Positions 9,322 through 63,322 are shown, counted from the stretch's first letter. The stretch is DNA of 64,000 nucleotides from Vicinamibacteria bacterium (GCA_963668695.2 CAXXLQ010000004.1:1152001-1216000), one strand, 5' to 3'. Numbers and translations are program-made. Notes: a model not told the origin generated them from the sequence alone.

Positions 9322-9576
9322 AGCGGCCGGTGGTGGAACCCGGGTGAGCGCCGAGAGCGCCAGTTCTCCCGGTGGGGGGGAGGCGCCCGGCTGACAAGGC
9401 GCGTGAGGGAGGAGCCCCCACCGGGAGAACTGGCCCGGGTGTATTGCGACCGAAACGCAACGCAGAACGCCAGTTCTCCCGGTGGGAGGGCGAAGCGGAG
9501 TGGTTCAGCCGGGATGCATCGCCGCTCGAGCCCCCACCGGGAGAACTGGGCCGCCTGGGTTTCACCACCGGCTGCT
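9322..9576. mobile_element. MITE-like element, copy 1
   Basis: Terminal inverted repeats AGCGGCCGGTGGTGGAACCC / GGGTTTCACCACCGGCTGCT. Non-coding; its core is shared with four other copies. Confidence 0.75.
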
Positions 9577-9622
9577 GGGGTGTAAGGGATCGTCGGAGTT
9601 GTCAAGTGAGACACGGAGCGCG

Positions 9623-10459
9623 TCACACCAGCACCACCGCCGCCGGCGGCAGCGCGCCGGCAGCGGCCTCCGCCCGGTAGCACTCCCCTGCGGTGGCGGC
9701 GAGGGGAGGAGTCAGGGTTCCCGTGGTGATGACCTCCCCGGGGCAGAGCGGATTCCCCTGATCCGCCGCCATTTCGGCCAGCACCCCGACCGCGTCCAGC
9801 GGGTTCCCGAGGACCATGCGGCCAGCCCCGTCCGCCACGTGTCCGGCGGCCGCGGGATCGTCCGCCGGCGCCCGGGTCATGGACACCACGAGTGCGGCCA
9901 TCGCGGCCGCGGCGGCCTCCGGATCGTCCACCGGGACGAGCGGCCCCACGGCGAGCCCGTGATGGATCCCGCCGGCGGCTACCGCGTCAGCGGGGCGCAT
10001 GTTCCAACCGGGATACGGCGAGTCCACGACCTCGAAGCCGAGGCCGATCTCGGCCACGTGGCGGGCGACAGCGGCGCCCCGGTCTCCCTTTTCGGGGGTG
10101 GAGCGGAGCACCACCACGACCTCGCATTCGATCTTCGGCTCGACGGCGCCCGCCATGGAAATGGCCGGGGCCTGGCCGCCCGGCCCGGTGCGGGTCACCG
10201 ACTCTTCGAACATGGATCCCCACACCGGCAGGGTCAGCCCGGCCTTTTCCCAGAGCGCGGGGTTCGTGAACCCGATCTTGCGACCGACCACCGGGGACCG
10301 GGCGGCCCGGCGGCAGGCGACGATCCCGGCCACCTGGTACGCCTCGGCAAGGCCGAACCCGGAGACGCGGCCGGTAAAGGGAGCGAGCCGGCCGCCGGCG
10401 GCGCGGGCGGCGATGATTTCCTCGGCGATGGCCATGGGATCGAACGATGGGTCAGTCAT
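9623..10459 (-). CDS. 2-keto-4-pentenoate hydratase-like (FAH family)
   Basis: GRKIGFT, PKIECE, EVVDS, GNPL and GEVITTGT. Confidence 0.85.
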   Translation of the reverse strand: MTDPSFDPMAIAEEIIAARAAGGRLAPFTGRVSGFGLAEAYQVAGIVACRRAARSPVVGRKIGFTNPALWEKAGLTLPVWGSMFEESVTRTGPGGQAPAISMAGAVEPKIECEVVVVLRSTPEKGDRGAAVARHVAEIGLGFEVVDSPYPGWNMRPADAVAAGGIHHGLAVGPLVPVDDPEAAAAAMAALVVSMTRAPADDPAAAGHVADGAGRMVLGNPLDAVGVLAEMAADQGNPLCPGEVITTGTLTPPLAATAGECYRAEAAAGALPPAAVVLV

Positions 10460-10526
10460 GGAATTCCTCCGGCCGGCAGTGTACGGATTCGGGTAGAGTC
10501 GGCCGCCCGCCGAAGGCGTTTCTCCA

Positions 10527-10910
10527 GTGTTCAGCATCTCCGTCCGGGACCACGTCATGTGCTCGCACGCGCTGCGCGGCGAGATCTTCGGCCCGGCCCA
10601 GAATCGCCACGGGGCCACCTACGCAGTCACCGCCGAGTTCCGCGGCCCGGAACTCGACGAACACGGCGTGTTGCTGGATCTCGGCTGGGCCAAGGAAGCG
10701 CTCGGCGAGACGCTCGCGCCGCTCCGTTACGCGGACCTCGACGAGGTGTTCCCGGGCGAGAACACCACCACCGAGTTCCTCTGCCGCTATGTGCACGGGG
10801 AGCTGGCGCGGCGCCTCCCGGCGAGCTTCCAGGGCGCGATCCGGGTGGAGCTCGTCGAAAATCCCCTGATGGCGGCTGCTTACGAAGCCCCCGTCGCCAA
10901 CCGCTCCTGA
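10527..10910 (+). CDS. 6-pyruvoyl/6-carboxy-tetrahydropterin synthase (QueD/PTPS-like)
   Basis: H..HGATY.V...F, NTTTEFL and VELVENP T-fold motifs. Confidence 0.8.
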   Translation: MFSISVRDHVMCSHALRGEIFGPAQNRHGATYAVTAEFRGPELDEHGVLLDLGWAKEALGETLAPLRYADLDEVFPGENTTTEFLCRYVHGELARRLPASFQGAIRVELVENPLMAAAYEAPVANRS

Positions 10911-10921
10911 AGGAGTTCCGC

Positions 10922-12079
10922 TTGTCTGACGACGATCGTCCCCAGAGCCTCGATACCCGCGCCGTCCACGAAGGCGCGCTGCACCCCCGTCCGTTCGGCG
11001 CCGTCTCGACGCCGGTGTTCCAGACCGCGAACTTCGAGTACCACGGCGAGGAGTACCACGACGTCGGGTACCTGCGGCTCTCGAACAGCCCGAACCATCT
11101 CGTCCTCCACCGGCGGATCGCTTCGCTGGAGGGAGCGGAAGACGCGCTCGTCACCGGCAGCGGCATGGCTGCGATCTCGTCGGCGCTCCTCACGTTTTTG
11201 AGCGCCGGGGATCACCTGTTGGTCCAGGACGTGGTGTACGGCGGGACCGCCAACATGCTGGAGCACGATCTGCCTCGTTGGGGGATCAACCACACCAAGA
11301 TCGATCCGCAGGATCCGGCGTCCTGGGAGGCGGCGCTCACGCCTTCGACGCGGTTGATCTACGTCGAGACCCTGACGAATCCATTGGTTCAGATGGCCGA
11401 TCTCGAGGCGGTGGCAGCGTTCGCGAAAAGCAGCGGGCTGATCTCCATGATCGACAACACCTTCGCGAGCCCGGTGCTCTGCCGTCCGGCGGAATTGGGC
11501 TTCGATCTGGTGATGGAGAGCGCCACCAAGTACATGAACGGGCACAACGACCTGGTGGCGGGCTCGATTTCGGGCTCCGCGGAACGGGTGCGGCGGATCA
11601 AGCTCACGCTCGACCATCTCGGTGGCTCGCTCGATCCGCACGCGTGTGTGCTGCTGGAACGCGGGCTCAAGACCATCGGCCTCCGGGTGCGCCGGCAGTC
11701 GGCGAGCGCGCTTGAGATCGCCCGCTTCCTCGAGGGCCGCCCCGAGATCGCCGAGATCCACTATCCCGGCCTGCCCTCGCACGCCCAGCACGCCCGGGCC
11801 GCCCGCCTGCTCGGCGGCGGTTTCGGGGGGATGCTGGCGTTCGTGCACGCCGGCGGAGGGGAGGTTGCCGACGCCTTCGCGTCGCGCCTCGAGCTGCCGA
11901 CGGTGGCGGCGAGCCTCGGCGGGGTGGAGTCGCTCATCATCCGCCCGGCTGCCGCCATCCACAGCGGCCTGCCACCGGAAGCCCGCGCCGGCATGGGGAT
12001 CTCCGAGGGACTCATGCGGTTTTCCACCGGGGTGGAGGCCGTGGAAGACCTGATCGCCGATTTCACGCAGGCGCTCTGA
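10922..12079 (+). CDS. PLP-dependent trans-sulfuration enzyme (Met gamma-lyase / cystathionine gamma-synthase family)
   Basis: SGMAAI, ETLTNP, DNTFASP, SATKYMNGH and SLGGVESL. TTG start after an AGGAG RBS. Confidence 0.92.
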   Translation: MSDDDRPQSLDTRAVHEGALHPRPFGAVSTPVFQTANFEYHGEEYHDVGYLRLSNSPNHLVLHRRIASLEGAEDALVTGSGMAAISSALLTFLSAGDHLLVQDVVYGGTANMLEHDLPRWGINHTKIDPQDPASWEAALTPSTRLIYVETLTNPLVQMADLEAVAAFAKSSGLISMIDNTFASPVLCRPAELGFDLVMESATKYMNGHNDLVAGSISGSAERVRRIKLTLDHLGGSLDPHACVLLERGLKTIGLRVRRQSASALEIARFLEGRPEIAEIHYPGLPSHAQHARAARLLGGGFGGMLAFVHAGGGEVADAFASRLELPTVAASLGGVESLIIRPAAAIHSGLPPEARAGMGISEGLMRFSTGVEAVEDLIADFTQAL

Positions 12080-12094
12080 CGCCGAGCCGGACCG

Positions 12095-12712
12095 GTGTTT
12101 CCCCCGCTTCCTCCGGAACGCTTCGGCATCATCTACGCCGACCCGCCCTGGGATTACAAGGGCCAGTTGCAGCACGCGGGGCCGGCCAGCGGCGACACCG
12201 GCGGCGCCATCCGGCACTACGGGACCGTCACCCTCGACGACCTCATAAAGCTCCCGGTCGGAACGATTGCGGCGGACGAGTGCCTCCTGTTCCTTTGGGC
12301 CACGAGCCCCCATCTGGACCAGGCGATCGAGTTGGGCAAGGCCTGGGGATTCGCCTGGGCGACCGTCGCTTTCGTCTGGGACAAGGTCCGGGTGAATCCG
12401 GGCTTTTACACGATGAGCCAGTGCGAGTTGTGCCTCGTGTTCCGCCGCGGCCGGATCCCCACGCCCCGCGGCGCGCGCAACGAACGCCAGCTCGTCCAGG
12501 CGGAGCGCGGGCCCCACTCGGAGAAGCCGGAGGAAGTGCGGCGCCGGATCGAACGGATGTTTCCGGAGCAGACGAAAATCGAACTCTTCGCCCGGCGGGA
12601 ACTCCCCGGCTGGCAGCCGTGGGGGCTGGAAACCGCTCTGGAATCCAGGGTTTCCGCACCGGAAGCGAGCTCCGCACCCGCCACCGGTGGAACGGGGCGC
12701 CGCTTCGGCTAG
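12095..12712 (+). CDS. MT-A70 family N6-adenine methyltransferase
   Basis: IYADPPW, LFLWAT, HSEKP and IELFAR. Confidence 0.92.
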   Translation: MFPPLPPERFGIIYADPPWDYKGQLQHAGPASGDTGGAIRHYGTVTLDDLIKLPVGTIAADECLLFLWATSPHLDQAIELGKAWGFAWATVAFVWDKVRVNPGFYTMSQCELCLVFRRGRIPTPRGARNERQLVQAERGPHSEKPEEVRRRIERMFPEQTKIELFARRELPGWQPWGLETALESRVSAPEASSAPATGGTGRRFG

Positions 12713-12738
12713 CCGGCCCACGCTGTCTCCGGGCTGCC

Positions 12739-13163
12739 AGCAGCCGGTGGTGGAACCCACGTGAGCGCCGAGGCTGGCCAGTCCCGGTGGGGGCGAGGCG
12801 CCCGGCTGACAAGGCGCGTGAGGAAGGAGCCCCCACCGGGAGAACTGGCCCGGTGTATTTCGACCGAAACGCAACGATGAGCGGCGCGAAGCGACGCGGT
12901 TTCAGACCGAGAACTGGGCCGCGTGGGTTTCATCAAGGCTGTTTGGCCGGGATGGATCGCCGGCCGAGCCCCCACCGGGAGAACTGGCCCGGGTGTATTT
13001 CGACCGAAACGAACGATGAGCGGCGCGAAGCGACGCGGTCAGCCGGGATGGATTGCCGGCCGAGCCCCCACCGGGAGAACTGGGCCGCGCGGGTTTCATT
13101 ACAGGCTGTTTGGCCGGGATGGATTGCCGGCCGAACGCCGCGTGGGTTTCGCTACCGGCTGCT
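12739..13163. mobile_element. MITE-like element, copy 2, internally amplified
   Basis: TIRs AGCAGCCGGTGGTGGAACCC / GGGTTTCGCTACCGGCTGCT(AG). Repeated internal modules and internal right-end-like copies at ~12926 and ~13091. Confidence 0.75.
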
Positions 13164-13176
13164 AGAGTCCGGATCA

Positions 13177-13596
13177 GTGGCTTGGTCGATCTGGGTAGTT
13201 GCCGGGGTCGCCCTCGCCGCGCTTGAACTCCTGGCCGGCGGCGAACTCTGGCTTCTCTTCGCGGGTGTCGCGGCGGTCGTCGTCGGACTGTTGGCCGGCG
13301 TGGGATTGACCGGGCTGGCGCCGCAGTTTCTCGTCTTCTCCGTTCTTGCGGCCTCCGCCTTCTTCGTGAGGCGGCGCCTCTTGGCTCCCGCGGACAAAAG
13401 TCCCGTCGGCAGCGACTCGCTCGCGGGAGAGGTCGGAACGGCTACTTCGGAGATCCTGCCGAACCAGCCGGGGCACGCGGAATTCCGTGGTTCCCGGTGG
13501 CCAGCGCGAACGGCGTCCGGGCAACCGATCGAGGCCGGAAGCAGCGTGCGGGTTGCGCGGATGGAAGGCATCACCCTGTTTGTCGAGCCCGAATGA
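13177..13596 (+). CDS. NfeD family membrane protein (short form)
   Basis: Hydrophobic N-terminus plus OB-fold G..W.A...G..V.V....G..L.VEP, directly upstream of an SPFH gene. Confidence 0.88.
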   Translation: MAWSIWVVAGVALAALELLAGGELWLLFAGVAAVVVGLLAGVGLTGLAPQFLVFSVLAASAFFVRRRLLAPADKSPVGSDSLAGEVGTATSEILPNQPGHAEFRGSRWPARTASGQPIEAGSSVRVARMEGITLFVEPE

Positions 13597-13636
13597 CGCC
13601 TCGCTGATGCGGGGCCACTGAAAAAGGAAAAAGTCT

Positions 13637-14572
13637 GTGACGCCATTTCAAATTATCGCGGGATTGATCGCCCTGATCGTCGTGATCACGCTCTTCCGCA
13701 CCGCCCGGGTCGTTCCCCAGCAGCAGGTGTTCGTGGTGGAGCGGCTCGGCCGCTACCACGACAGTCTCAAGGCCGGTTTCCACCTGTTGGTGCCTTTCGT
13801 GGACCGCGTCGCCTACCGGCATTCGTTGAAGGAGCGCGCCATCGATGTCCCGCAGCAGGTGTGCATCACCCGCGACAACGTCCAGATCTCCGTGGACGGC
13901 GTGCTCTACATCCAGGTCGTGGACGGGCGGCGCGCCTCCTACGGCATCGGCGACTATACGTTCGCGATCGCGCAGCTCGCGCAGACGACGCTTCGTAGCG
14001 AGATCGGGAAAATCGATCTTGATCGGACCTTCGAGGAGCGGTCGACGATCAACGCTTGCGTGGTCGAGGCAGTGGACCGTGCCAGCGACCCTTGGGGCGT
14101 GAAGGTCCTCCGCTACGAAATCCGCGACATCGCGCCGCCGTCCGACGTGCTGAGCGCCATGGAAAAGCAGATGCGCGCCGAACGGGAGAAGCGCGCGACC
14201 ATCCTCGCCTCCGAAGCTGACCGCGACTCGCAGATCAACCGGGCGGAGGGCGAGAAGCAGCGCGTCCTGCGGGAATCGGAAGCCCAGCGTCAGCGGCAGA
14301 TCAACGAGGCGGAAGGCGAGGCGCAGGCCATCATCGCGGTGGCCACAGCCACCGCCGAGGGGATTCGCCAGGTGGGAGAAGCCATCTCCGGCCCCGGCGG
14401 GCAGGAATCCGCCCGCATCCGGGTGGCCGAGCAGTACGTGTCCGAATTCGGCAAGCTCGCGCGGTCCACGAACACCCTCATTCTCCCCGCCAACCTCGCG
14501 GATATCGGCGGTTTCGTCGCTACCGCGATGGAAGTCATCAAGAGTACGGACAAGACCTCAGCGAGTTCGTAG
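13637..14572 (+). CDS. SPFH/band-7 (QmcA/paraslipin-like) protein
   Basis: VVERLGRY, CITRDNV, QTTLRSEIG and MEKQMRAEREKRA. Confidence 0.95.
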   Translation: MTPFQIIAGLIALIVVITLFRTARVVPQQQVFVVERLGRYHDSLKAGFHLLVPFVDRVAYRHSLKERAIDVPQQVCITRDNVQISVDGVLYIQVVDGRRASYGIGDYTFAIAQLAQTTLRSEIGKIDLDRTFEERSTINACVVEAVDRASDPWGVKVLRYEIRDIAPPSDVLSAMEKQMRAEREKRATILASEADRDSQINRAEGEKQRVLRESEAQRQRQINEAEGEAQAIIAVATATAEGIRQVGEAISGPGGQESARIRVAEQYVSEFGKLARSTNTLILPANLADIGGFVATAMEVIKSTDKTSASS

Positions 14573-14848
14573 CCCGCGTGCCGAGTCGGCGGGCGGCCCG
14601 GAGGCTGTCGGTCGGATCGGATAGTGCCGGTTTATGTCGCTGCGACGGTGCGACGGCGCAGCGGCAGGCGGTGAAACCGGCACCCCGGCAGTTCGGGGTG
14701 TCTCACGCGCCGGGATGGAACGACGCGGTGAAGGACAAGTTAGGTCGTGTATGGCTACCCGGCGTGACCCCGGTTCGTGGCGTCACTCCCAGGCGCCCGA
14801 CAGACAGATGTTGGAGAGCGACAAATACCGTCGTTCTATGGTTCCGCC

Positions 14849-14912
14849 CAGTCCGGCATCGCGCGCCAGACCTTCTCCGGGCTCAGCGGGGTGTCGAGGT
14901 GTTCCACCCCGA
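14849..14912 (-). pseudogene. Displaced copy of the 3' end of the molybdo-hydroxylase gene
   Basis: 64 nt matching 15498-15561 with 5 mismatches (GVEHLDTPLSPEKVWRAMPD vs GVEHLDTPLTPEKVWRAMQD). Confidence 0.85.
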
Positions 14913-14974
14913 GCGGGTGAGGACGCCGGGATCAGGGGCTCGGGATGTGCTTTCATATATCGGCATCACACATC

Positions 14975-15193
14975 ATGCGGACGAGCATCTCTCTCCCCGA
15001 CGAGCAGGCCGAGCGGCTCGCGGAGGTGTGTCGTAATCAGGGCATCTCCCGCGCCGAGGCAGTGCGGCGCGCGCTCGCCCGGTATCTCGACGAACATCGG
15101 CGCCGTCGCCAGGAAGACGTGTTCGGGATCTGGCGCGGACGCCACCCGGACGGGCTCGACTACGAGCGCCGGTTGCGGGGAGAGTGGTCCTGA
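14975..15193 (+). CDS. CopG/ribbon-helix-helix antitoxin-like protein (orphan)
   Basis: MRTSISLPD...GISRAEAVRRAL...FGIW...R.EW, a VapB-like pattern. No PIN gene follows. Confidence 0.8.
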   Translation: MRTSISLPDEQAERLAEVCRNQGISRAEAVRRALARYLDEHRRRRQEDVFGIWRGRHPDGLDYERRLRGEWS

Positions 15194-15496
15194 ACGGGAG
15201 CTGCCCGGTGGGCGATGCCGGTCTGAAGACGCCCACCGGGGGAGACCTTCCCGGGGGAGACCTTCATCGTCGGGTCCTCCTGCACACCCCGGCGGTCATG
15301 AAAAAGGCGCGCGGGTGCTTCGGGCAAGGGGAGCGGTGAGTGGTCGCACGATCCGAGGTTGGAGGAGGGTGCGGACTTCACGTTGGCATGACGCCGCATC
15401 ATCGGCGCTGGTTTCGCGCTCCCTCGCGGCCGGCACCATCTGGACCGTTGGCGGTCCCGCCGGATCGCGGTTCCCCGTCGCCTCGGCGTCGAGCGC

Positions 15497-17807
15497 TCAG
15501 TCCTGCATCGCCCGCCAGACCTTTTCCGGGGTCAGCGGGGTGTCGAGGTGTTCCACGCCGAAGGGGCGTAGCGCGTCCATCACGGCGTTGACGACCGCCG
15601 GCGTCGAGCCGATGGTCGCCGCCTCGCCGATCCCCTTGACTCCGAGCGGGTTGACGTGGGTCGGCGTGACCGTTCGGTGCAGTTCGTAGGAGGGGAGCAT
15701 GTCGGCCCTCGGGACCGCGTATTCGAGCAGGGACGGGGTCAGGAAGTTGCCGTCCGCGTCGTAGACCGCTTCTTCGTAGAGTGCCTGCGCGATTCCCTGG
15801 GCCAGCCCGCCGTGCACCTGCCCCTCGGCGAGCAGCGGGTTGATCACCCGGCCGCAGTCGTCCACCGAGATGTAGCGGAGGATCTCGACGGCGCCGGTAT
15901 CGGGATCGATCTCCACCGCGCAGAGGTGGGATCCGAACGGGAAGGTCTCGCCGGGGGGCTTGAAGTCCACATCGGCAGAAAGTTCGGCGGCGGCGCCCTC
16001 GGGGGAGTCCGCCGAGTAGGCGAACGCCGCGATCTCCGACCAGCCGACAGCGCGGGCGGGCGAGCCGGCGACGAAGAATTGCCCCGCCTCGAAGCGGATG
16101 TCCTCGGGAGCCGCTTCCAGGAGCTTGGCGGCGAGCTGCTTTGCATGTTCGCGGACGGTTTCGGCGTTGTTGAAGATCGCCGACCCTCCCACCGGAGCGC
16201 TCCGGCTTCCGAAGGTCCCGATGCCGCGCGGACACTCGTCGGTGTCACCGTGGAGCACCGTCACGTCGTCCATTTGGACGCCGAGCTGCTCCGCGGCGAT
16301 CTGCGCCCACGCCGTCTCGTGTCCCTGCCCGTGCGGCGAGGTGCCGCTCCGAACGGTGACCGAACCGTCGGGTTCGACGGTCACGCCCCCGGCCTCCCAG
16401 GGGCCGAATCCGCAGATCTCCACGTAGCAGGCGAGGCCGATCCCGAGCAGCTTTCCGCCGCCCTCGGCCCGCCGCCGGGCCTGTTCGGCCCGAAGACTCG
16501 CGTAGTCGCCGGCCTCCAGCGCCAGATCGAGCGCCTTTTCGTAGTCCCCGCTGTCGTAGGTCAGCCCCGTCGCCGTCCGGTAGGGGAACTTGTGCGCCGG
16601 GATCAGGTTGCGGCGGCGGATGTCCGCCGGGTCCATCCCGAGCCGGCCGGCCAGCACGTCGAGCGCCCGCTCGATCAGGTAGGTGGCCTCCGGGCGGCCG
16701 GAGCCCCGGTAGGGCTCGTTCGGCGCGGTGTTCGTGAACGCCCCCTCGGCCCGGGCGTGGGCGGAGCGGATGTCGTAGGGACCGACGATCATGCTCCCGG
16801 TGAGGGAGGGAGTGGTGGGTCCGGGCCGGCTGAAGTAGGCGCCCGAGTCGTAGAGGATGTCCAGATCGCAGTGCCGTCACCCGCCCGTCGCGGTCGGCCG
16901 AGACGCCGAGCGTCACGAAGAGGTTTCGGCCGTGGGTGGTGGTCTGGAAGTCCTCGGTCCGGGTGGCGTACCAGCGGACCGGGCGGCCGAGCCGCAGGGC
17001 GAGCCAGGGGACCAGGACCTCCTCGGCGTAGAGGTTCGCCTTGGCGCCGAAGCCGCCGCCGACCTCGGGGGCGATGGTCCGGATGCGTTCCTCGGGGATT
17101 CCCAGGATGCGCGCCACGCTCGACTTCACCCGATGCGCGGACTGGGTGGAGGTCCACATCGTGATCCGGTCGCCGTCCACCCGGGCGGCGACCGCCCGCG
17201 GTTCCATGGCGCTTGGGATCAGGCGCTGGATCCGGAAGTCGAGCGACACCTCGACCTCACCCTGCGCGGCCTCGGGCGCGCCCTCGGGATGGAGTTCCCA
17301 GACGAAGGATCGGTTCCCTGCCACCTCGGGATAGAGGAGCTCCGCGCCCTCGGCGCGCGCCGCCCGGGAGTCGCCGGCTCCGGGGAGGTCCCGGTAGTCC
17401 ACGAAGACCAGCGCGGCGGCGTCGGCCGCCTGTTCGGGCGTCTCGGCGACCACCGCCACCACCGGATCGCCGACCGTGAGGACCTTGCCGTCGGCGAGCG
17501 CCCACCGCGGCGGCAGGTGGAGTTCGGTGAACGCGCCGGCGTCCGGCGCCCGGGCCACGGGGAAGGGCTTTTTCAACGTCGGCAGGATGTCCGCCGCGGT
17601 GAAGATCCCGACGACGCCAGGCGCGGCGGCGGCTTCCTCGCTATCGATCTCGACGATCTCGGCGTGCGGATAGGGACTGCGGACGACCGCGAGATGGAGG
17701 GCGCCGGGAAGCGGGATGTCCGGGGTGTAATGCGCCTGACCGGTGATGAGCCGCGGGTCTTCCCGCCTTCGCACCCGATCGCCGATGGTCTGGGTTCTGA
17801 TTGCCAA
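15497..17807 (-). pseudogene. Xanthine dehydrogenase/CoxL-like molybdopterin-binding large subunit, frameshifted near 16868
   Basis: RREDPRLITG and VGGGFGAK lie in one frame; PYRGSGR, GQGHET and GVKGIGE lie in another. This could be a sequencing error. Confidence 0.85.
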
Positions 17808-19688: not shown

Positions 19689-19690
19689 TC

Positions 19691-34984: not shown

Positions 34985-35220
34985 TGGGGTTGTCACGATA
35001 TGCCGATCCCCCTCCAGAGTATTGAAGAACGTGGAAAGCACAGACGGTCTAGGCGTTTCGCGGCCTGCGGCCGCGATGCCGGTCTGAAGACCGGCGGTCC
35101 CTCTCCAGCTCTGTCGCCAAGGCCGGGTCGGCGATTCCCGGCGGGGCACCGGCGCCCACGTCTAACCCGCTGAAGCGGCAAGTGTTTCGCTCGAGGAAGC
35201 GTTACGGCGCACCGTTTCCG

Positions 35221-47075: not shown

Positions 47076-47092
47076 GCGGGATGGCGCACTTG

Positions 47093-47391
47093 GGAGCGCC
47101 GGTCTTCAGGCCCCCACCGGGAAAACTGGCCAGCATCGCGGCCGCAGGCCGCGAAACTCCCATCGCCAACCACGAAAAAGCGCGGGGACGGCTTGGAGCG
47201 CCGGTCTTCAGGCCCCCACCGGGAGAACTGGCCAGCATCGCGGCCACAGGCCGCGAAACTCCCATCGCCGACCGCGAAGAAGCGCGGGGACGGCTAGGAG
47301 CGCCGGTCTTCCGGCCCCCACCGGGAGAACTGGCCAGCATCGCGGCCACAGGCCGCGAAACTCCCATCGCCGACCGCGAAGAAGCGCCGGG
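47093..47391. repeat. Three tandem 102-bp REP-derived units, each carrying the 18-nt motif
   Basis: Units start at 47093, 47195 and 47297. Confidence 0.92.
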
Positions 47392-47490
47392 CTAGTTTGC
47401 CCCGGTTTATCGGACCAGTAGGAACGGCCGAAACGCCGGTTCGCGCCGGCCCCGGGAGTTGTTCTTCGAAGTTCGCGGGGCTCTTGACGG

Positions 47491-48251: not shown

Positions 48252-48393
48252 CTAAACAACCTGTGGACAAAGCCACGCGGCCCAGTTCTCCCGGTGGGGG
48301 CTCCTCCCTCACGCGCCTTGTCAGCCGGGCGCCTCGCCCCCACCGGGAGGACTGGCCGCTCTCGGCGCTCACGTGGCTTTGCCCACCGGCTGT
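48252..48393. mobile_element. MITE-like element, copy 3 (short, reverse orientation)
   Basis: Shared core CCCTCACGCGCCTTGTCAGCCGGGCGCCTC with diverged TIRs. Confidence 0.65.
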
Positions 48394-48426
48394 CACGTCC
48401 GTGGTGGTGCTCCAGGATGTGATGGA

Positions 48427-50045: not shown

Positions 50046-50280
50046 CAGCCTGTGGTGGAACCCGGGTGAGCGCCGAGGCCGGCGAGGCGCCCGGTGGGGG
50101 CGAGGCGCCCGGCTGACAAGGCGCGTGAGGGAGGAGCCCCCACCGGGAGAACTGGCCCGAGTGTATTTCGACCGAAACGCAACGCAGAGCGCCGCAAAGC
50201 GGCAGTTCTCCCGGTGGGGGGCGGTTCAGCCGGGATGCATAGCTGGCCGGACGCCGCGCCATGTCGTCCACGGACTGTTT
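50044..50280. mobile_element. MITE-like element, copy 4
   Basis: Left TIR AGCAGCCTGTGGTGGAACCC overlaps the upstream TAG stop; shared core. Confidence 0.7.
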
Positions 50281-55023: not shown

Positions 55024-55112
55024 GAACGCCGGCCAGTTCTTCCGGTGGGGCTTCACACCGGCATCGCCCGCCCGCCGGGCGGGCGAAACCCGCGCGTCGC
55101 TCGCTCGGGCGG

Positions 55113-58100
55113 CTACCTCCCCCCGAGCACCTCCCGCGCACGCCGGACCTGCTCCTCATCCCCCGCCCGGGCGGCGGCTTCCAGCAGACCCCGATAGAGG
55201 TTGAGGTCCGTGGGATCGCGGTCCACCGCCTCCCGGTAGAGCCGGACCGCCTCTGAGGGGCGTCCCGACGCCAGCTCGAAGGCCCCGAAGTTCGCCCAGT
55301 GGAACGCCGGGCCCGGCGACTGCGCGACGAGGTTCGAAAAGGCTTCCCGCGCCTCGGTCGTCCGTCCGAGTTCCGCGAGCGCCACCGCCCGAACGCGGAG
55401 CGCCCGTTCCGTCTCCGGCCGGGCCGCCAGGATGGCGGCGGACTGTTCGGCGGCTTCCTCCGCCCTGCCGCGGCGCACGCTCAGCTCGGCGAGCCAGGCC
55501 GCCGCCTCCGCATCCTGCGGGTCGCTTCCGAGCACCGCCAGCACCAGCGCCTCGGCGGAGTCCCAGGCGCCGCGTTCGACCTGGACTTCGGCTGACAGGA
55601 GCAGCGCCTCGCGATCCTCGGCCAGCTCGGCCGGTCCGCCCTCGAGTACCGCCGCCGCTTCGTCGGGCCTGCGCGCCCGCAGCAGGAGCTGGGCGAGCGA
55701 AACGGTGAGCGCCCGCGCGGTCTCGCTCGCCGCTGGAACGGTCCCCAGCGCGGCCCGCAGGGCTTCCGCACCCTCTGCCGCCCTGCCGCTCGCCAGCGCG
55801 GCTGCACCAGCCGCCGCTGCTGCGCTTCGGTTCGGCGGGATCGAGTTCGAGCGCCTGCCGGGCCAGCTCGAGCGCCCAGTCCGGGTTCTGGGCGGAGAGG
55901 AGTCCGGCGGCGCGGCCCGCGAGCCTTCCGGCGTCGGGTGAAGGCGCCGGCCCGAAGGGCCCGAAAGGCGGTTCCGAGGCGAGCCGCTCGAGCGCCCGGC
56001 GGTTTTGGAAAGCGGTGGTGGCGTGGACGGACAGCGGCGCCCGGAACTCCAGGATCGGATGGTCGTCCCGGTGCCGCGGCGCCCCGGCGGCCCAGGCTGC
56101 CAGTTCCGGACCCGCCGCCGTAAGCCAGCCGCGGAGCGCACGGAAGTCCGTGATGCCGTAAGGGGCGAGCTCGTCAGCCAACCGGGCGATGCGGGGCTCG
56201 ATATTGCGCCCCGGAACCGGCGGGAACGCCCCGTTCGAGCCGATCAGCAGCGCGTCCCCGTCGTGGAGCACGAAGAGCACGGCTTGCGGGAAGACATCGG
56301 TGAACCCGCCCACCACCGTCCGCAGGCTCTCCTCCGCGAGGTTGTAGAGGTGGATCCACTGGCAGAAGAGGCCGCCGTCCTTGAGCCGCGAGCGCACCAG
56401 CTCGAAGAACTCCACCGTGAAGAGCGGTGAAACGCCGCTCATCCAGGGGTTCGACGGTTCCGAGATCACGACATCGAACGAATCGCGGGAGAAGAGCAGG
56501 TGGTTCCGCGCGTCCACCTCCAGGAGCGAAAAGCGTTCGTCCGCCCACGGCGCACGGTTGCTCTCTCCGAAGAGCCGGGACGCCTGCGCCACCTCCGGGG
56601 AGATTTCGGCGGCGGTCACCCGCTTTACCCCGTGCCGGAGGGCGGCGCCGGCGGTGACCCCGCTCCCGTGTCCCACGATGAACACCGAGTCCGGCGCGGG
56701 GTGGAGGAGGAGCGGCAGGTGCGCCAGCATCCGCTGCGTCAGCATGTCCGCCCCGTCGGTCGCGTCCACCTTCCCGTCGATGGCGAGCGAGAGTTCGCCG
56801 CCCACCTCCTTCACGGACACCGTCGCGGCGGCGCCCTGCTCCAGGAAGCGCAGCTCGCCCCGGCGCAGGAAGTCCCGGTGGCGGGAAACCTCCATCTGCG
56901 GCGCAACGCGGTAGAGCCCGCCGGAGAGCGCCTCCCAGTCCCAGGATGCCGTGGCGCCGACGCCGAAGGCAGCAAGCGAGCCGGCGAACAGCAACGTCAG
57001 GACCCGGGGCTTCGCCACGAGCGCGGCCGCGAGCTGGGCGAGCACGGCAGCGAGCAGCGCCGCCTCGATGCCGAGCCAGGGGATGATGAGGAAACCCGCC
57101 GCGAGCGCGCCGAGTACGTTCCCGCTGGCGTTCGTCGCGTAGATCGTCCCGGTGGCGCGCCCGGCGTCTCCGGCGGAGGAACCGCCGGAGGTTGCGGCGC
57201 CCCCCACCGCCAGCGGAAAGGTGGCGCCGAAGGCGAGGCCGGGCAGGAGCAGCACTGCCGCGGTGCCCAGGAACTGGAGGTTGAGGAGGTGCGGCACGTC
57301 CGCGGCGTTTTCGGCGACCAGTTCCCCGATCGGGAGCACGAGACGGCTTCCGAACCACGCGACGGCGGCCGAAGCGGCCGCTCCCCCGAGCTGGACGATC
57401 GCCAACCAGGTGCGGGCGCTTCCGCCGCCGCGCCACCGCTCCGCGAGTCGCCCGGCGGCCGCGCTGCCGAGCGCGACCCCCAGGATCACCGACGCCACCA
57501 CGCAGGCGAAGGTGTAGATCGTGGGCCCGAAGAGCAGGGAGGCGAGTCGCGCCCAGCCGATTTCGGCGGCCATCGCGGCGAACCCGGAGAGCGCCGCGAT
57601 CCCGGAGAAGGGCGCCGTCCCGCGCCCTCCGAACCACGGGCCCCGGGTTGCCTGCGGGAGGCTCCCGGCCGGAGCCCTGCCGAAGCGGGTCCACACCAGG
57701 ACTCCGGCCAGCAGGTTTGCGGCGATCCCGCAGACCGAGGACCCGGTGAGGCCCAGTTCGGGAATCAGCATCCGGGCGGCGGCCACGCTCCCGATGAGGG
57801 CGCCCACGGTGTTCACGGCATAGAGCCAGCCGGCGGCGCCCGCTTCGCCGCGGTCCCGAACCCGGCGGCTGAGCGCGGTGAGCGTCGGCAGGGTGGCGCC
57901 CATCAGGGTGGCGGCGGGCAGGAGGAAAAGAGCGGCCAGCATCGCGGTGGGCGCCAGCGCGCTCTCCGGGGTCGCCGCCGCTCTGACGAGGGGCACGGTT
58001 CCGGCCAGATAGAGCGGCAACCCCGCCGCGAATCCCGCTGCCCCCAGTTCCAGGACCAGGAACCGTCGCGCCAGCCGCGCGGCCCCGAGTCTTCCGCCCG

Positions 58101-58296
58101 AGCGCGCGGCCAGGATCGCACCCAGCCCGAGTCCGCCAAGGAACATGGCGAGCACCACGGTCACTGCGGCGTTCGTCGTCCCGAGCACGACGGCGAAGCG
58201 CCGCACCCAGACGATCTGGTAGGTCAGCGACGCGAAGCCCGAGAGCAGGATCGCGAAGCCGAGCAGGGCGCCTCTACCTCCGCGCGCGGCGTTCAT
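55113..58296 (-). pseudogene. Fused membrane domain / spermidine synthase-like methyltransferase / TPR protein, frameshifted near 55830
   Basis: Two membrane repeats (LYAVNTVGA, IYATNASG), G.GSGVT and FDVVISEPSNPW. The TPR tail is in another frame (55113-~55830). Confidence 0.8.
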
Positions 58297-58327
58297 CGCA
58301 CAGGCAGCGTAGTGCCTGGCCCGCGTC

Positions 58328-59380
58328 CTATCGCTGTTCCGGTTCGCCTCCGGTCCGGTGCAGATACCCGCTCCGCGCCCGGACGTTCGCCCCGTCCCGG
58401 TTCACCGTGACTTCCAGCGAGCGCCAGCCCGGGGGCTGATCGGGGTCCGGCACGAAGGCGAGTGCGTAGCGGGACCGCATTTCCTCCAGGATCTCTCCGT
58501 AGGCAGCCAGCAGGCGCCGTTCGTCACGGCTCTGCACCAGTCGGCCGCCGCTTAGTTCGGCGACGTGGCGCAGGAGCTGGAGTTCCGAGGGGGCGCGCAT
58601 GCCGGCGCGCGTCCGGAGGTTCCGGCGCGGCCCGTCGAGCAGGATCTCGAGTGCATCGGGGGCGATTCCGCCGTTCATGCGCCGGATGCCGATGCGCCGC
58701 CGGCGCGCCACCGAGGGGGGGACGAAATCCTGATTCCGGTAGCGGTATCGCTGGCGGGCCGTGCCCCGGGTGTCCGGGGGAATGACGACGTAAAGCACCG
58801 CCTCGCTGCCCTGGAGCGCCGGCTCCACGAACCCCTCCGGCGTCCAGCTCATGGTGTCCGCGCCGTCGGTAAACATGATGACCACCTTCCGTCCGGGCTC
58901 CTCCTCGACGAGCGCCGTGGAAAGCACGACCGAATCCCAAAGCGCCGTGCCCCCGACGACTCCCTCCGGGGGGAAGGGGTTCGGGGGAAGGTCCGAACAG
59001 CCGGCGAAGTCGTGGGTCACAGCGGGTTCGGAAGCGAAGGTGACGACCGCACAGCGGTCCTGTCCGGACAGTTGGCCGGAGAACTGCCGGGCCGCCTCCG
59101 CGAGGCGCTGCCGGCGTTCCTGTGTGACGCTCTGGCTCATGTCCATCACGAAGAGCACCGAGACCGGCAGGTCTTCGAGCGGCACCAGCCGGACGTCCCG
59201 GCGGACGCCCCCGTCGAGGAGGACGAAATCCCGCGCCGTGAGGTCCGCCACCGGGCGGTCCCGCCGGGTGACGACGACGTCCACGAGGACCTCTTCCACC
59301 GTGACGCGGAAACGGACCTGCCCGGACGCGGCGGAGGCCAGGACAGGGACGAGCAGCGCGGCGGTGAGGAACGTGCGCAT
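58328..59380 (-). CDS. VWA domain protein (acidobacterial type)
   Basis: DMSQS MIDAS, GTALWD, FTDG.DT.S and RARSGY. Confidence 0.9.
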   Translation of the reverse strand: MRTFLTAALLVPVLASAASGQVRFRVTVEEVLVDVVVTRRDRPVADLTARDFVLLDGGVRRDVRLVPLEDLPVSVLFVMDMSQSVTQERRQRLAEAARQFSGQLSGQDRCAVVTFASEPAVTHDFAGCSDLPPNPFPPEGVVGGTALWDSVVLSTALVEEEPGRKVVIMFTDGADTMSWTPEGFVEPALQGSEAVLYVVIPPDTRGTARQRYRYRNQDFVPPSVARRRRIGIRRMNGGIAPDALEILLDGPRRNLRTRAGMRAPSELQLLRHVAELSGGRLVQSRDERRLLAAYGEILEEMRSRYALAFVPDPDQPPGWRSLEVTVNRDGANVRARSGYLHRTGGEPEQR

Positions 59381-59386
59381 CAGGGA

Positions 59387-60391
59387 CTAATCCTGCGGCA
59401 ACAGGACCAGGCCCCGAAGCCGGTCCAGGCGCACGATCTCGTCCGCGAGCGGCTGGACGAGAAAGCGCCACCAGGTGTCCTGTCCGGTGCTCTGGGATAA
59501 GAAGCCGCGCACCGCTTCCGCAGCGCCCTCGCCGTCCCCGAGCGTCTGGCGCGCGGCGGCGAGGCCGGCGGCCGCCGACATCGAACCCAGGTGAACGGCC
59601 TGCGCTTCGGCGAAGGCCGCTTCCGCCGCCGCCGCGCGCTCGAGCCAGAGCAGGGTTTCGCCGCGCAGCAACAAGGAGACAAAGCGATGCACCGCGCTCA
59701 GGTTGTCGCCCGCCATCCCCAGCCGCTTGAGCGCGTCCTCGGGGTCGCCCGCCCGCAACGTGAGGTGGGCGATCCGGAGGTGGAGTGCCGCCGGGTCTCC
59801 CTCGCCCTCCAGCAGCAGATCCTCATAGCCGGCCTGCGCCTGATCCATGAACCGCTCGTCGTGGAGACCCCAGCCGATGAACTCCGCGAGGTGCGCCCGG
59901 GCGAAGCGGACCTCGGTGAAATCCGGATACCGGTCGGCCAGGAACTTGCCCATCCGCGCCGCGCCGTCAAGCCGCCCGCGATCCACGTACACCCCGAGAA
60001 GCCCCAGGTGAGCGTCCCGAATCCAGGCGTCGCGCCGCGTGCCGCTGACCCGGTTCAGCAGGTCGCGCGCGATGCTTTCGTTCTTTTCGGGCTCCATCTC
60101 CGCTGCCCACGCCAGGTCGAAATGGAGCATCGCGGCAGCGAGCACATCAAGGTCCCGTGCCACGTCCGTCCGCTGGCGGAAGTACTCCTCGGCCTGGTCG
60201 CGGAGGCGGCCGACGGAGAACGCCATGCTCGCCTGGAGGGCGGTCCGGAAGTCGCCGCTCCGGTATACCGCGAGCCGGGATGCGTAGGCATCGAGGTTCC
60301 GCTGCTGGGAGTGCGCCCCGCCGGGCAGCAGGCACAGGGTGGCCGCCGCGAACGCCGCTGCGGGCAGCCCCCGCGCGCGAATTCTTCGCAT
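59387..60391 (-). CDS. Secreted helical/TPR-like hypothetical protein
   Basis: Signal peptide and Ala/Leu-rich helices; in an operon with the VWA gene. Confidence 0.7.
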   Translation of the reverse strand: MRRIRARGLPAAAFAAATLCLLPGGAHSQQRNLDAYASRLAVYRSGDFRTALQASMAFSVGRLRDQAEEYFRQRTDVARDLDVLAAAMLHFDLAWAAEMEPEKNESIARDLLNRVSGTRRDAWIRDAHLGLLGVYVDRGRLDGAARMGKFLADRYPDFTEVRFARAHLAEFIGWGLHDERFMDQAQAGYEDLLLEGEGDPAALHLRIAHLTLRAGDPEDALKRLGMAGDNLSAVHRFVSLLLRGETLLWLERAAAAEAAFAEAQAVHLGSMSAAAGLAAARQTLGDGEGAAEAVRGFLSQSTGQDTWWRFLVQPLADEIVRLDRLRGLVLLPQD

Positions 60392-60539
60392 CCGGTCTCC
60401 GCGGGCTCGCATGCCGGCAGCCCGTAGGCAAAGTGACACGGCGTTCCCGAGCCAGAAGGGATGGGGGTCGGGTAGCCCCGCCCCCCGTCCCTTCCGCTCC
60501 GGGGTCTCCGCGGTGCTGGCGCCCCGCTCCGGAAACGAG

Positions 60540-60713
60540 CGGTGATTCATCCTGGCTGAACCGCTTCGCTCATCGTTGCGCGTCGGTCGAAATACACCAG
60601 GGCCAGTTCTCCCGGTGGGGGCTCCTCCCTCGCGCGCCTTGTCAGCCGGGCGCCTCGCCCCCACCGGGAGAACTGGCGCTCTCGGCGCTCGCGCCACTTT
60701 ACCCACGGACTGC
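60540..60713. mobile_element. MITE-like element, copy 5 (reverse orientation)
   Basis: Reverse complement of the shared core, with two 18-nt motifs. Confidence 0.65.
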
Positions 60714-60833
60714 ACAAAAGCCATTGTCCCACCGGCGCCCCGCCCACCTGACGCCGGCTGGTACCATGATGTGTTTCCCGGTCTCCGCCGGATGCATTCG
60801 CATCTTCTCCGGCGCCGGAAACGAGGAAGCTCC

Positions 60834-62126
60834 ATGTCGTTGAAAAACCGTTCCCTTCTGCTTGGCGGCGGGGCGCTGGTCGTCCTGATGGCCGCTTTCT
60901 TGTCCGGTTGCGGCGGCGGTGAGGAAGAACCCGCCGCAATGACTGAGGAAGATCAGATCCTCGCGGACGCCCGGCGCATCCACGACGCGGTGATGACCCT
61001 CGACACCCATATCGACATCCCCTTCAACTACGCGACCGAGGAGGTGGACCCCGGGAACCTCAACGAGGACTTCCAGGTGGACTATCCCCGGATGCAGGAA
61101 GGCGGCCTGAATGTCGGCTTCTTCATCGTGTACTTCGGCCAGACCGAGCGGACGCCCGAGAACTACGAAGCCGCCAAAGAGGGGGCGCTGACGAAGTTCG
61201 ATTCCATCCACCGCGCCACCTCGATGCATGCGGACGTCATCGAACTCGCCCACACCGCGGACGATGCGGAGCGCATCCACGCCGAGGGGAAACTGGTCGC
61301 GATGATCGGGATCGAGAACGGCTATGTGATCGGCAAGGACCTCTCGCTTCTCGAGACGTACCACGGACTCGGCGCCCGCTACATCACCCTCGCCCACAAC
61401 GGGCATAACGACATCGCCGACTCCTGCAACCCGCGGGAGGAACTCGGCGATGCCGAAGCGGAGCACGGCGGGATCAGCGAGTTCGGCAAAGAGGTGATCG
61501 CCGAGATGAACCGGCTCGGCATCCTGGTGGACGTCTCCCACATCTCGAAGGACGCCATGCTGCAGGCGGCGGAACTCTCGGCCGCCCCGGTCATCGCGTC
61601 GCACTCGGGCACCAAGGCGCTCGCCGACGTCTCCCGGAACATGGACGACGAGCAGCTCCGCGCGCTCGCCGCGAACGGCGGCGTGATGCAGACGGTGGCG
61701 CTCCGGGGCTTCGTCAGGACTGATCCCCCCGGCAAGACCCAGGCAACGAGCGATCTCATGGCGGAGTACGGGATCTCCTCCCGCGGCGAAATTGGCTCGC
61801 TGAGCGAGGAGGACCAGGCCGCGCTCCGGAACCGGATGATGGACATCAGCGCCGAGTTTCCCGTGGCCGTGGGCGATTTCGTGGATCACATCGACCACGG
61901 GGTCGAGGTGATGGGTCTCGACCACGTCGCGATCTCGTCGGACTTCGACGGCGGCGGCGGCGTGGACGGCTGGGACAGCGCCGCGGAGACGCTCAACGTG
62001 ACGATCGAGCTGGTGCGCCGTGGCTACACCGAAGACCAGATCGCCCAGCTCTGGAGCGGGAACACGCTGCGGATCCTCCGGGAGGCCGAGCGGGTGGCCG
62101 CGGAGATGCAGGCGCCCGGTTCGTGA
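60834..62126 (+). CDS. Membrane dipeptidase (M19) lipoprotein
   Basis: LSGC lipobox, DTHID, GIENG, DVSH, ASHS and SDFDG. Confidence 0.93.
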   Translation: MSLKNRSLLLGGGALVVLMAAFLSGCGGGEEEPAAMTEEDQILADARRIHDAVMTLDTHIDIPFNYATEEVDPGNLNEDFQVDYPRMQEGGLNVGFFIVYFGQTERTPENYEAAKEGALTKFDSIHRATSMHADVIELAHTADDAERIHAEGKLVAMIGIENGYVIGKDLSLLETYHGLGARYITLAHNGHNDIADSCNPREELGDAEAEHGGISEFGKEVIAEMNRLGILVDVSHISKDAMLQAAELSAAPVIASHSGTKALADVSRNMDDEQLRALAANGGVMQTVALRGFVRTDPPGKTQATSDLMAEYGISSRGEIGSLSEEDQAALRNRMMDISAEFPVAVGDFVDHIDHGVEVMGLDHVAISSDFDGGGGVDGWDSAAETLNVTIELVRRGYTEDQIAQLWSGNTLRILREAERVAAEMQAPGS

Positions 62127-63322
62127 ACTTCCGTCGGAACGCCGCCAGTTCTCCCGGTGGGGGCCTCCGAACGGAATCGCCCGCTACCGGCGGGCGAAAC
62201 CGCGTACGGCTGTCCGCCCGCGGGGCGCCGCTTTCCACCGAGGCTCCCGCGGAGTTCAACCAGGAGCTCCGCGCCTACGAGCAGGTCGCGAAGTTCCAGC
62301 GCTACCGGCTCGCGGAGGGCGCCGAGGAGGAGTTTGACGAGGACTTTGTCCTGAATCCGTGCGATCTGTCGCTGCTCGGTTCGTCCCGGGCCGCTGACCG
62401 CGAGCGGTTCAACCGGGACCTCGGCGAATCACTGGAGGACACCGGCTTTGCGATCCTCGCCGGACACGGGGTGGACCCGGCGCTCTACGCGGAGGCCCAC
62501 CGCCGGACGCGGGAGTTCTTCGAAAGCCACGCGCTTGAGGAGAAGCTCCGCTACCGGGCGCGCCGGCAGGGTTCGGTGAACCAGGGTTACTTCCCGATGC
62601 GGGAAACCACCATGATCCACCCGGATCTCGTGGAGGGCTGGGTCTTCTGCCGCCGGGCCTTCGATCTGGGGGAGGACCCGGACTGGGACGAGGCGGCGTT
62701 TTGGCCCTCGCCGGGGTGGGAGCCCTTCTTCCGGCGGGTGGTCCAGGCCCACGAGCGGCTGATCCACCCGATCATGCGGTCCGTTCTCTCGTACCTCGGC
62801 GAGGATCCCGCGCTCTTCGACGAGCGGCTCACCGCTACCAACTTCGGCTTCCGGCTGAACTACTACCCGGCGATGACCGACGTTCCGGAGGGGACCACCG
62901 GCAGGATGCTCGGTCACGAAGACGTGGACCTCTTCACCATCCTCCCCGCCGCCGAGACCGAGGGCCTGCAGCTCCTCCACCGCAAGACCATGAAGTGGGT
63001 GCGGGTGGCCGCCCCGCCGGGCACCATCGTGCTGAACACCGGCGACTACATGCAGCGGATCACGAACAACCGGCTGCCGTCCACCACCCACCGGGTGAGC
63101 GCGCCCCGCGACCCCGCCGCGCGGTCGCAACCGCGAACCTCGTTCCCGATGGCGATCTACGTCTGGGAGGACGACCTCCTCGAAGTTCTCCCGAACCAGG
63201 GCGCCCCGCACTACCCCCCGGTCCGTGCCGAGGACTTCCACACCCGCATCACGAGCAAGTACTACGGCGACAGCTACCACACGACCGGCGAAGAGGGCGC
63301 CGTCTCCCGCCGGGTGCGCTAA
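62123..63322 (+). CDS. Isopenicillin N synthase-like 2OG-Fe(II) oxygenase
   Basis: RLNYYP, HEDVD (HxD), NTGD, THRV and R.S. Start uncertain. Confidence 0.88.
   Translation: MNFRRNAASSPGGGLRTESPATGGRNRVRLSARGAPLSTEAPAEFNQELRAYEQVAKFQRYRLAEGAEEEFDEDFVLNPCDLSLLGSSRAADRERFNRDLGESLEDTGFAILAGHGVDPALYAEAHRRTREFFESHALEEKLRYRARRQGSVNQGYFPMRETTMIHPDLVEGWVFCRRAFDLGEDPDWDEAAFWPSPGWEPFFRRVVQAHERLIHPIMRSVLSYLGEDPALFDERLTATNFGFRLNYYPAMTDVPEGTTGRMLGHEDVDLFTILPAAETEGLQLLHRKTMKWVRVAAPPGTIVLNTGDYMQRITNNRLPSTTHRVSAPRDPAARSQPRTSFPMAIYVWEDDLLEVLPNQGAPHYPPVRAEDFHTRITSKYYGDSYHTTGEEGAVSRRVR

Follow-up and report, generated by a model that had tools for sequence, protein, structure and literature searches.

An 18-nucleotide word that behaves as an insertion within the repeats of a Vicinamibacteria genome

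A 64,000-nt stretch of a Vicinamibacteria bacterium genome (GCA_963668695.2, CAXXLQ010000004.1:1152001-1216000), here called the window, harbours 18 copies of the 18-nt word CCCCACCGGGAGAACTGG, designated M, all of them lodged within other repeats. Sequence comparison indicates that M is a derived insert and not an ancestral part of one repeat. It is read here as a discrete insertion module that has mostly been multiplied second-hand, and whose primary insertion would be a repair-type copy-and-paste event and not the work of a classical transposase. This reading is tentative and is held with slightly less than even confidence. An earlier note, made from the window sequence, had listed the 18 copies (at most one mismatch, both orientations). 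All of them were found, the single correction being a start at 50202 instead of 50203, and the partial copies that it gave at 12778, 12908, 15232, and 50090 are visible in the sequence. The same search of 100 shuffled windows returned no match, and none is expected by chance.

The insertion is most directly seen in a unique gene. In the genome of the window (G000), M lies in frame in a single-copy gene for an AcrB-like transporter of the resistance-nodulation-division (RND) type (contig C4:393139-396336). The sister species G001 carries it as well, whereas 14 other genomes of the genus lack exactly these 18 nt. Two target bases were replaced: where the empty gene reads CG before CGGGAT, the filled gene reads GC[M] before CGGGAT. 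One alanine thereby becomes seven residues, and the six extra residues fall into a cytoplasmic loop. The closest neighbouring copies of M lie at distances of 4.3 and 8.3 kb. Only two of approximately 1,631 copies (at most two mismatches) lie in probable genes, and these two represent the RND locus and its duplicate.

Repeats tell the same story at other positions. In other genera, a homologous miniature inverted-repeat transposable element (MITE) carries M elsewhere, and a site that is half-filled in G000 is empty there; in one of these genera, M additionally occurs in repeat families unrelated to the MITE. Within the genus of G000, low-copy genomes carry it at still other sites, such as the loop of the other hairpin of a repetitive extragenic palindromic (REP)-like element. 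Among close relatives, G000 and G004 have M in the hairpin at window position 62145, whereas the orthologous hairpin of G001 and G008 is empty. The earlier note had regarded M as a separate unit that inserts into other repeats without a consistent target duplication, and this part of it is supported. The contrary case it had named, that M always occupies homologous positions of one ancestral element, fails with the sites in other genera and the gene insert.

Two further loci in apparent coding sequence were observed in other genomes. A possible second in-gene insertion lies at G012:C59:40609-40626, where 18 extra bases contain M; the homologue in G000 (76% identical) reads only GAAC at this site, a tetranucleotide that also occurs within M. 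In G018, a member of another genus, an M-minus/M-plus pair is found at C1:417200-417650 and C1:423750-424200, accompanied by neighbouring short tandem repeats. It lies in an apparent linker after a polyketide ketosynthase domain, keeps the frame open (QFSRWG ... PPPGEL), and recurs in at least two neighbouring modules.

M starts with CCCC, ends with CTGG, and is usually flanked by GC on the 5' side and by CC or GCC on the 3' side. Its conservation is near-total over the 18 bases, and the information content collapses outside approximately −2 to +20. The word is non-coding, not palindromic, and has no terminal inverted repeats beyond three complementary bases. On its own it is unstructured: with 2-nt flanks its folding energy is −1.4 kcal/mol (z +0.70), a value equalled or bettered by 153 of 200 shuffles. 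There is co-variation between positions −1 and 18, with G..C in 32 copies from four contexts against C..G in 1,362. Non-majority variants amount to 1.4% per site in M and to 9.1% in the MITE skeleton; rare private variants are within twofold of each other (0.51% against 0.92%, the value for M being truncated at two mismatches). Degenerate copies are rare, with about eight in 408 MITEs. No Rfam family matches the window.

The genome-wide count that the earlier note had called for gives 1,288 exact copies in G000, 278 with one mismatch, and 65 with two, hence 1,631 in total. The assembly comprises 4.1 Mb in four contigs, with 67% G+C, 92% completeness, and a contamination estimate of 9.3%. Contig C1 repeats parts of C4 at 100% identity (e.g., C1:39678-40278 equals C4:394138-394738), so the M counts are inflated by a few tens. 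Together with the contamination estimate, these repeats suggest duplicated or alternative contigs (C1, C3) in the assembly. On C4, M is spread evenly and without strand bias (745 plus, 757 minus). Nor is there a bias by replichore, either for all copies (417 plus and 400 minus on the right, 328 and 357 on the left) or for those in REP-like elements (20 and 31 on the right, 11 and 21 on the left). Both 40-nt flanks are repeated at least ten times in 1394 of 1630 copies and are both unique in only 14. The earlier statement that M occurs only inside repeats holds for the window.

The main host is a TA-flanked hairpin MITE of approximately 190 nt. For its census, all M copies were removed from the sequence before a search with one stripped repeat, which yielded a 193-nt skeleton with approximately 650 copies in G000. 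Inside these map 1,273 of the 1,631 M copies, at no fewer than nine positions. The main sites are filled in 10-49% of the MITE copies each (query coordinates): position 43 is filled in 228 and empty in 418, position 49 in 234 and 411, position 80 in 317 and 331, position 126 in 61 and 562, and position 160 in 236 and 267, respectively. Position 49 mostly holds a fixed doublet, a G-variant followed by M, and minor positions are 40, 116, 132, and 144. Nearly every combination of filled sites exists, and 103 of 408 full-length MITEs have no M at all. Inverted M pairs are frequent (139 at 49 nt, 26 at 52 nt, and 57 at 56 nt, with others at 64, 111, and 117 nt) and give perfect 18-23-bp stems; their spacings are set by the host MITE.

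Outside MITE matches there are 351 M copies, 96 of which belong to tandem arrays of a 71-nt unit derived from the right arm of the MITE. The remainder lie mostly in a REP-like element of two hairpins; for this element, 113 filled and approximately 129 perfect empty hairpins were counted. Insertion destroys or remodels the first hairpin, and two variants of the stem have M at an equivalent point, on one strand or the other. Hybrid flanks, in which two different named sites are joined at M, occur in roughly 40 of the 1,630 copies. Because the left and right flanks almost always belong to the same site, M is an insert in a stable skeleton and not the joint of shuffled cassettes, and a role as a recombination joint was rejected on this count.

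The junctions differ between filled and empty sites in a reproducible manner. At MITE position 80, the empty sequence aAT/ACc (the slash marking the insertion point) corresponds to aGC[M]CCc, and at position 160 gaAC/gcc corresponds to gaGC[M]gcc. Position 43 has one base before CCGG when empty and GC[M] before CCGG when filled; in the REP-like hairpin, A or AC before (C)CGGC is likewise replaced by GC[M]. The bases adjoining M are in complete or near-complete linkage with its presence (r2 0.95-0.99). The net gain is 18 or 19 nt, without target duplication and with 0-3 target bases replaced; the exact joint shifts by 1-3 nt from case to case, and target bases are lost. M brings along one to four bases of its donor flank, namely GC upstream of the word and CC, CCGG, or CCAG downstream of it. 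Flanks reading CCAG or CTGG are found solely at filled sites, in MITE and REP-like contexts of two species. The right flank often repeats the CCGG found inside M, and in one other genus a 13-nt partial M stands in tandem between two CCGG. Since duplication is absent, target bases are lost, donor-flank bases are carried along, and short GC-rich matches occur at the joints, a repair-type copy-and-paste process is inferred. Such junctions look like those left when replication or repair copies or joins DNA, and not like those of a transposase with fixed ends.

How the copies were multiplied can be read from a comparison of 320 kb of G000 with 400 kb of syntenic G001, in which the blocks are mostly 92-97% identical and 49 orthologous intergenic regions were aligned. 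The segments contain 123 and 64 M copies, respectively, of which 120 and 58 were analysed. Common to both genomes are 26 copies in G000 and 24 in G001. Larger one-sided inserts, mostly whole repeats, contain 69 and 10, so more than half of the analysed G000 copies have hitch-hiked within sequence private to that genome. An M-sized indel in an otherwise conserved orthologous repeat accounts for 6 and 8 (14 of 178 analysed copies); M is aligned to other sequence in 19 and 15, and an M-sized gap with poor flanks is seen in 0 and 1. Judged by these class counts, most of the copy-number difference stems from the gain of whole host repeats.

Within the MITE family, exchange adds to this picture. Linkage in the skeleton decays within approximately 20 nt (mean r2 0.20 below 10 nt, approximately 0.05 beyond 20 nt), and the occupancy of different M sites is nearly independent (r2 at most 0.16). 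The family is therefore a mosaic in which M alleles are passed on like other short variants. Private variants of the host MITE are common to G000 and G001. Tandem runs of M at one site comprise two units (approximately 140 cases), three, four, or up to five. Most M copies are thus second-hand, produced by MITE amplification, tandem slippage (1-5 units), and short-tract exchange between repeats. Two adjacent G001 MITEs share the same degenerate M, absent in G000, which looks like a short-tract exchange. The fine grain of the mosaic needs an explanation of its own, either very short conversion tracts or recurrent mutation.

Of 24 other genomes from the same family of marine Vicinamibacteria, 20 contain M, as against none of 16 genomes of two sister families. 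The word is unchanged in each of the 15 remaining genomes of the genus and in four further genera, while the host MITE has diverged. Because the word is identical across five genera, something probably reads it. The few common variants, the rarity of degenerate copies, and the end co-variation likewise suggest a factor that reads M, which could be either a dedicated enzyme or a selected function. Exact copy numbers were compared among genomes of one to 20 contigs, those of 1-4 contigs being regarded as near-complete. G000 has 1,288 copies, followed by G004 (631), G001 (564), G008 (525), G018 (220), G009 (83), G014 (45), G019 (36), G010 (6), and G020 (1). Near-complete genomes thus range from 6 to 1,288 copies within the genus and from 1 (G020) to 1,288 within the family. 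Among the matches listed in a GTDB-wide scan, nearly all belong to Candidatus Marinacidobacterium and metagenome-assembled genomes (MAGs) of Vicinamibacteria; single stray hits in four unrelated high-G+C genomes, also among the matches listed, are about what a rough estimate gives for chance. Literature searches at the level of result listings returned no publication on M, on the genus name, or on repeats in these bacteria.

The earlier note had also proposed that an unknown enzyme writes M as a fixed oligonucleotide, and had named a reverse transcriptase, an HUH or REP-associated tyrosine transposase (RAYT), and an orphan Cas1 as possible source loci. No such locus was found, the junctions are imprecise, and the idea is not borne out. 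RAYT/Y1 transposases (PF01797) have no matches in G000, which is 92% complete, or in G004, and the RAYT-like protein of G001, used as a query, finds nothing in G000, G004, G018, G019, or G020. Reverse transcriptase (RVT_1) was not found in any of the five genomes searched. A search for Y2 transposases gave no match, the control genomes being silent too, and TnpB gave one sub-threshold hit in G000 and none above the cut-off. Cas1 of G000 is part of a canonical type I-E locus; the array there has 45 repeats, and their sequence bears no relation to M. The only IS110 copy was rejected as a mobiliser, being merely inserted in a REP-like hairpin. No master or template locus emerged either: the single copy of G020 sits in a MITE, the copies of five low-copy genomes lie in varied repeats, and relatives of M with three mismatches have no conserved gene context. 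Ku is present in all five genomes searched. Because G000 is approximately 92% complete and the searches were made at Pfam level, these failures are not proof of absence.

Several loci met in these searches deserve a brief description. The RAYT-like tyrosine transposase gene of G001 (L210:9586-10425), with an HUH motif and the region of the catalytic tyrosine, occurs in the majority of the genomes of the genus, though it was not found in G000 and G004; it is not flanked by M, and one copy with two mismatches lies 4 kb away. The type I-E system of clustered regularly interspaced short palindromic repeats (CRISPR-Cas; G000:C4:3280875-3292775) comprises Cas3, Cse1, Cas7, Cas5, Cas6e, and Cas1, with 45 repeats at 61-nt spacing, and is adjoined by a satellite with a 53-nt period (approximately C4:3276738-3278133). 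The sole IS110-family transposase gene of G000 (C4:482399-483650, 415 aa) belongs to an element that appears to have inserted into a REP-like hairpin, and two M-bearing hairpins are located 400-500 nt upstream.

Other candidate roles and mechanisms were tried and rejected. M is not the terminal repeat of a larger insertion sequence (IS), as inverted M pairs at distances of 0.7-4 kb never enclose a sequence present in several copies; a recurrent long element bounded by MITE ends was not found either. Targets are not always at hairpin apexes: the gene target is unfolded (z +0.77), and MITE site d lies between predicted hairpins. Quasi-palindrome correction between the MITE arms is contradicted by paired M copies that do not occupy mirror positions. 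A promotion of MITE mobility by M finds no support in the private mutation load, which is equal with and without M (Mann-Whitney p 0.52).

According to the preferred reading, primary insertion would be copy-and-paste by replication or repair, in which either a microhomology-guided template switch may place M or end-joining may capture an M-bearing fragment. A few donor-flank bases would travel with M, few target bases would be lost, and GC-rich matches would mark the joints. Several points weigh against this. A repair accident explains neither the sharp limits of the inserted unit nor the presence of the same 18 bases in five genera whose host MITE has diverged. A local template switch is unlikely at the RND gene because no M copy lies within 4.3 kb, and the co-variation of positions −1 and 18 hints at recognition or pairing of the two ends. 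Both repair routes, moreover, are deduced from junction anatomy, no intermediate having been seen, and site occupancy cannot separate repeated insertion from exchange, since linkage decays within approximately 20 nt. A rival explanation is a "nano-transposon", a non-autonomous element of 18-22 nt that would be moved in trans by a dedicated, sequence-specific enzyme to places next to GC-rich hairpin sequences. It would account for a discrete unit of the same sequence in five genera, for repeated insertion, in either orientation, at an equivalent point of both REP-like stem variants, for the four contexts of the end co-variation, and for a clean derived gene insertion far from any donor copy; SDR5 of cyanobacteria, described as a precise insert within HIP1 (highly iterated palindrome 1), offers a precedent. 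Yet no Y1/RAYT was found in G000 or G004, the RAYT-like protein of G001 gave no match in five genomes, neither RVT_1 nor above-threshold TnpB was found, Cas1 belongs to an ordinary type I-E locus, the single IS110 is itself only an inserted IS, a replichore strand bias is lacking, and the junctions vary by 1-3 nt with loss of target bases. A nano-transposon is possible but rather unlikely. Somewhat less likely still is the specific proposal that a sequence-specific machinery, conserved in this sponge-associated and marine family of Vicinamibacteria, writes the 18-nt word into GC-rich, hairpin-prone DNA.

M might instead be kept as a functional site, for protein binding, DNA uptake, or an RNA-level signal, with the repeats serving as tolerated places. 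Its identity in the genus and four further genera, its absence from the 16 sister-family genomes, its equally common orientations, the perfect stems of its inverted pairs, and its scarcity of intermediate-frequency variants are in line with such a role. A housekeeping signal should, however, be uniformly dense, whereas copy numbers run from 1 (G020) and 6 (G010) to 1,288 (G000); M is nearly excluded from genes, new copies are whole 18-nt insertions and not products of point mutation, rare private variants differ less than twofold in rate from those of the skeleton, and Rfam offers no match in the window. A functional site is accordingly quite improbable, and the uptake or binding tag that the earlier note had offered as its other option fits poorly with a range of 1 to 1,288 copies among near-complete genomes of one family. 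That M is ancestral in the MITE and REP-like elements, and that empty sites are deletions, could draw on the shrinkage of tandem units by slippage, on deletions that do exist between two direct M copies (e.g., in the short-form MITE 48253-48394), and on the filled/empty pattern at the 62145 hairpin, which departs from the apparent order of relatedness. This explanation is very improbable, being contradicted by the 14 genomes without the RND insert against two sister genomes with it, by non-homologous MITE sites in other genera and unrelated repeat families, and by empty sites that share a consistent alternative sequence, which is also the state of other genera. An assembly or adapter artefact can practically be dismissed: M is found at orthologous sites of separately assembled genomes from different species and in MAGs that stem from several projects, and it lies within conserved repeat structure and within an open reading frame. 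The adapter check that the earlier note had suggested is answered by these many independent assemblies.

The small dispersed repeats (SDRs) of Nostocaceae appear to be the closest precedent, in behaviour and not by descent. Both are tiny high-copy words that stand as precise inserts in other repeats, also in tandem, and for which no mobilising enzyme is known. SDRs are reportedly 21-27 nt long; M, with 18 nt and 1,288 exact copies in 4.1 Mb, is of the same type in size and dispersal. It differs from them in sequence and in phylum. Passages citing Elhai et al., 2008 place SDR5 within HIP1, after the third base and before the fourth. With REP sequences and their paired forms (REPINs, REP doublets forming hairpins), M shares intergenic occurrence, short length, hundreds of copies, inverted pairs at fixed spacing, and a copy number that varies between relatives. 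One end of REP elements is marked by a conserved tetranucleotide, GTAG or CGTC, as passages of PMC3733652 describe. M, in contrast, is not a palindrome and has no such tag, the M-richest genomes have no RAYT, and M sits inside another REP-like element without being one itself. Bacterial interspersed mosaic elements (BIMEs) of E. coli and neisserial intergenic mosaic elements (NIMEs) with their dRS3 repeats are mosaic intergenic elements in which a short word stands between variable modules. Occasional recombinant joints at M recall these, but in nearly every copy of M both flanks derive from a single site.

DNA uptake sequences (DUS) and uptake signal sequences (USS) are invariant across a family, equally common on both strands, often arranged as inverted pairs behind genes, and uniformly dense, including within genes. 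M is equally invariant in its family, balanced between strands, and often paired behind genes; it differs in a density that varies more than 1,000-fold among near-complete genomes, in its exclusion from genes, and in arising by insertion of a whole unit. The host element belongs with the TA-duplicating hairpin MITEs, such as the Correia elements or Neisseria miniature insertion sequences (NEMIS) and the repeat unit of pneumococcus (RUP), and explains most of the M copy number, whereas M itself has neither terminal inverted repeats nor a target duplication and is about ten times shorter. Unlike IS200/IS605 elements, M shows no orientation bias toward the lagging-strand template.

To our knowledge, insertion-like behaviour of repeats below approximately 30 nt had been described only once, in cyanobacteria in 2008, and no mechanism for it has been found since. 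M is among the smallest insertion-type repeats seen in bacteria and displays the same behaviour in another phylum with cleaner evidence, namely a dated, derived in-frame insertion in a single-copy gene, M-sized gains and losses in orthologous repeats of sister species, and a copy-number series of near-complete genomes. The range of 6 to 1,288 copies within one genus is a natural experiment for finding a putative machinery, and comparative genomics can now address whether a dedicated enzyme exists and which repair route is used. If a sequence-specific machinery did exist, no smaller mobile DNA unit than M would have its insertion documented directly by phylogeny, and the same machinery could explain the cyanobacterial SDRs. 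A few primary events multiplied thousand-fold by riding in MITEs also call for caution when "activity" is deduced from copy number.

Within the window, the first host MITE (9321..9577) forms one long hairpin (−96.9 kcal/mol, z −10.65) with four M copies: at site a1 in the left arm (9360..9377, minus strand), at site b (9416..9433, plus), at the rare site c' (query position 116; 9470..9487, minus, one mismatch), and at site d in the right arm (9532..9549, plus). M at a1 pairs with M at d, and M at b with M at c'. A composite MITE with repeated right-arm units (12737..13165) contains plus-strand copies at site b (12831..12848), at a recombinant joint with a d-type left and a b-type right flank (12970..12987), and at site d (13066..13083), besides two degenerate remnants (12778, 12908). 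The 71-nt arm unit following the last of these (approximately 13131) is empty, and the empty/filled pair that the earlier note had pointed out here, ccgaac/gccgcg near 13131 against ccgagc[M]gccgcg at 13060, is confirmed. Site b is filled at 50138..50155 (plus) and site c at 50202..50219 (minus, one mismatch); the copies at 9470 and 50202 flank the GCRAAGCG segment on opposite sides, as had been observed before.

A short-form MITE (48253-48394) carries M on the minus strand where b-type and d-type flanks meet (48282..48299) and a variant M', GAGGACTGG, at site a1 (48338..48355, plus). In a left-truncated MITE (60538-60713), read on the reverse strand, M occupies site b (60603..60620, minus) and site a1 (60659..60676, plus). 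Both of these whole MITEs are present in G000 and absent at the orthologous sites of G001, G004, and G008.

The intact REP-like element is confirmed on the reverse strand near 3582 and 35072; its two empty copies in the window, at 3560..3615 (−20.9 kcal/mol, z −5.2; two tight hairpins) and 35050..35105 (−19.1 kcal/mol, z −4.0), both lie on the minus strand. Filled hairpins occupy three 102-nt tandem units on the plus strand, with M at 47112..47129 (one mismatch), 47214..47231, and 47316..47333; two more are found on the minus strand at 55033..55050 (one mismatch) and 62145..62162. The different offsets that had been claimed for 47112, 55033, and 62145 proved to be one place, the junction between loop and 3' stem of the palindromic hairpin, within 1 nt and on either strand. 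At 55033, the CACCGG of M itself pairs with the 5' half of the stem. In place of the array at 47085-47395, which comprises the three 102-nt units, G001, G004, and G008 have REP-like arrays of quite another composition, and in the G001 counterpart one filled and one empty unit are adjacent. A 12-kb insert in G001 adjoins the M-bearing hairpin that corresponds to window position 55033.

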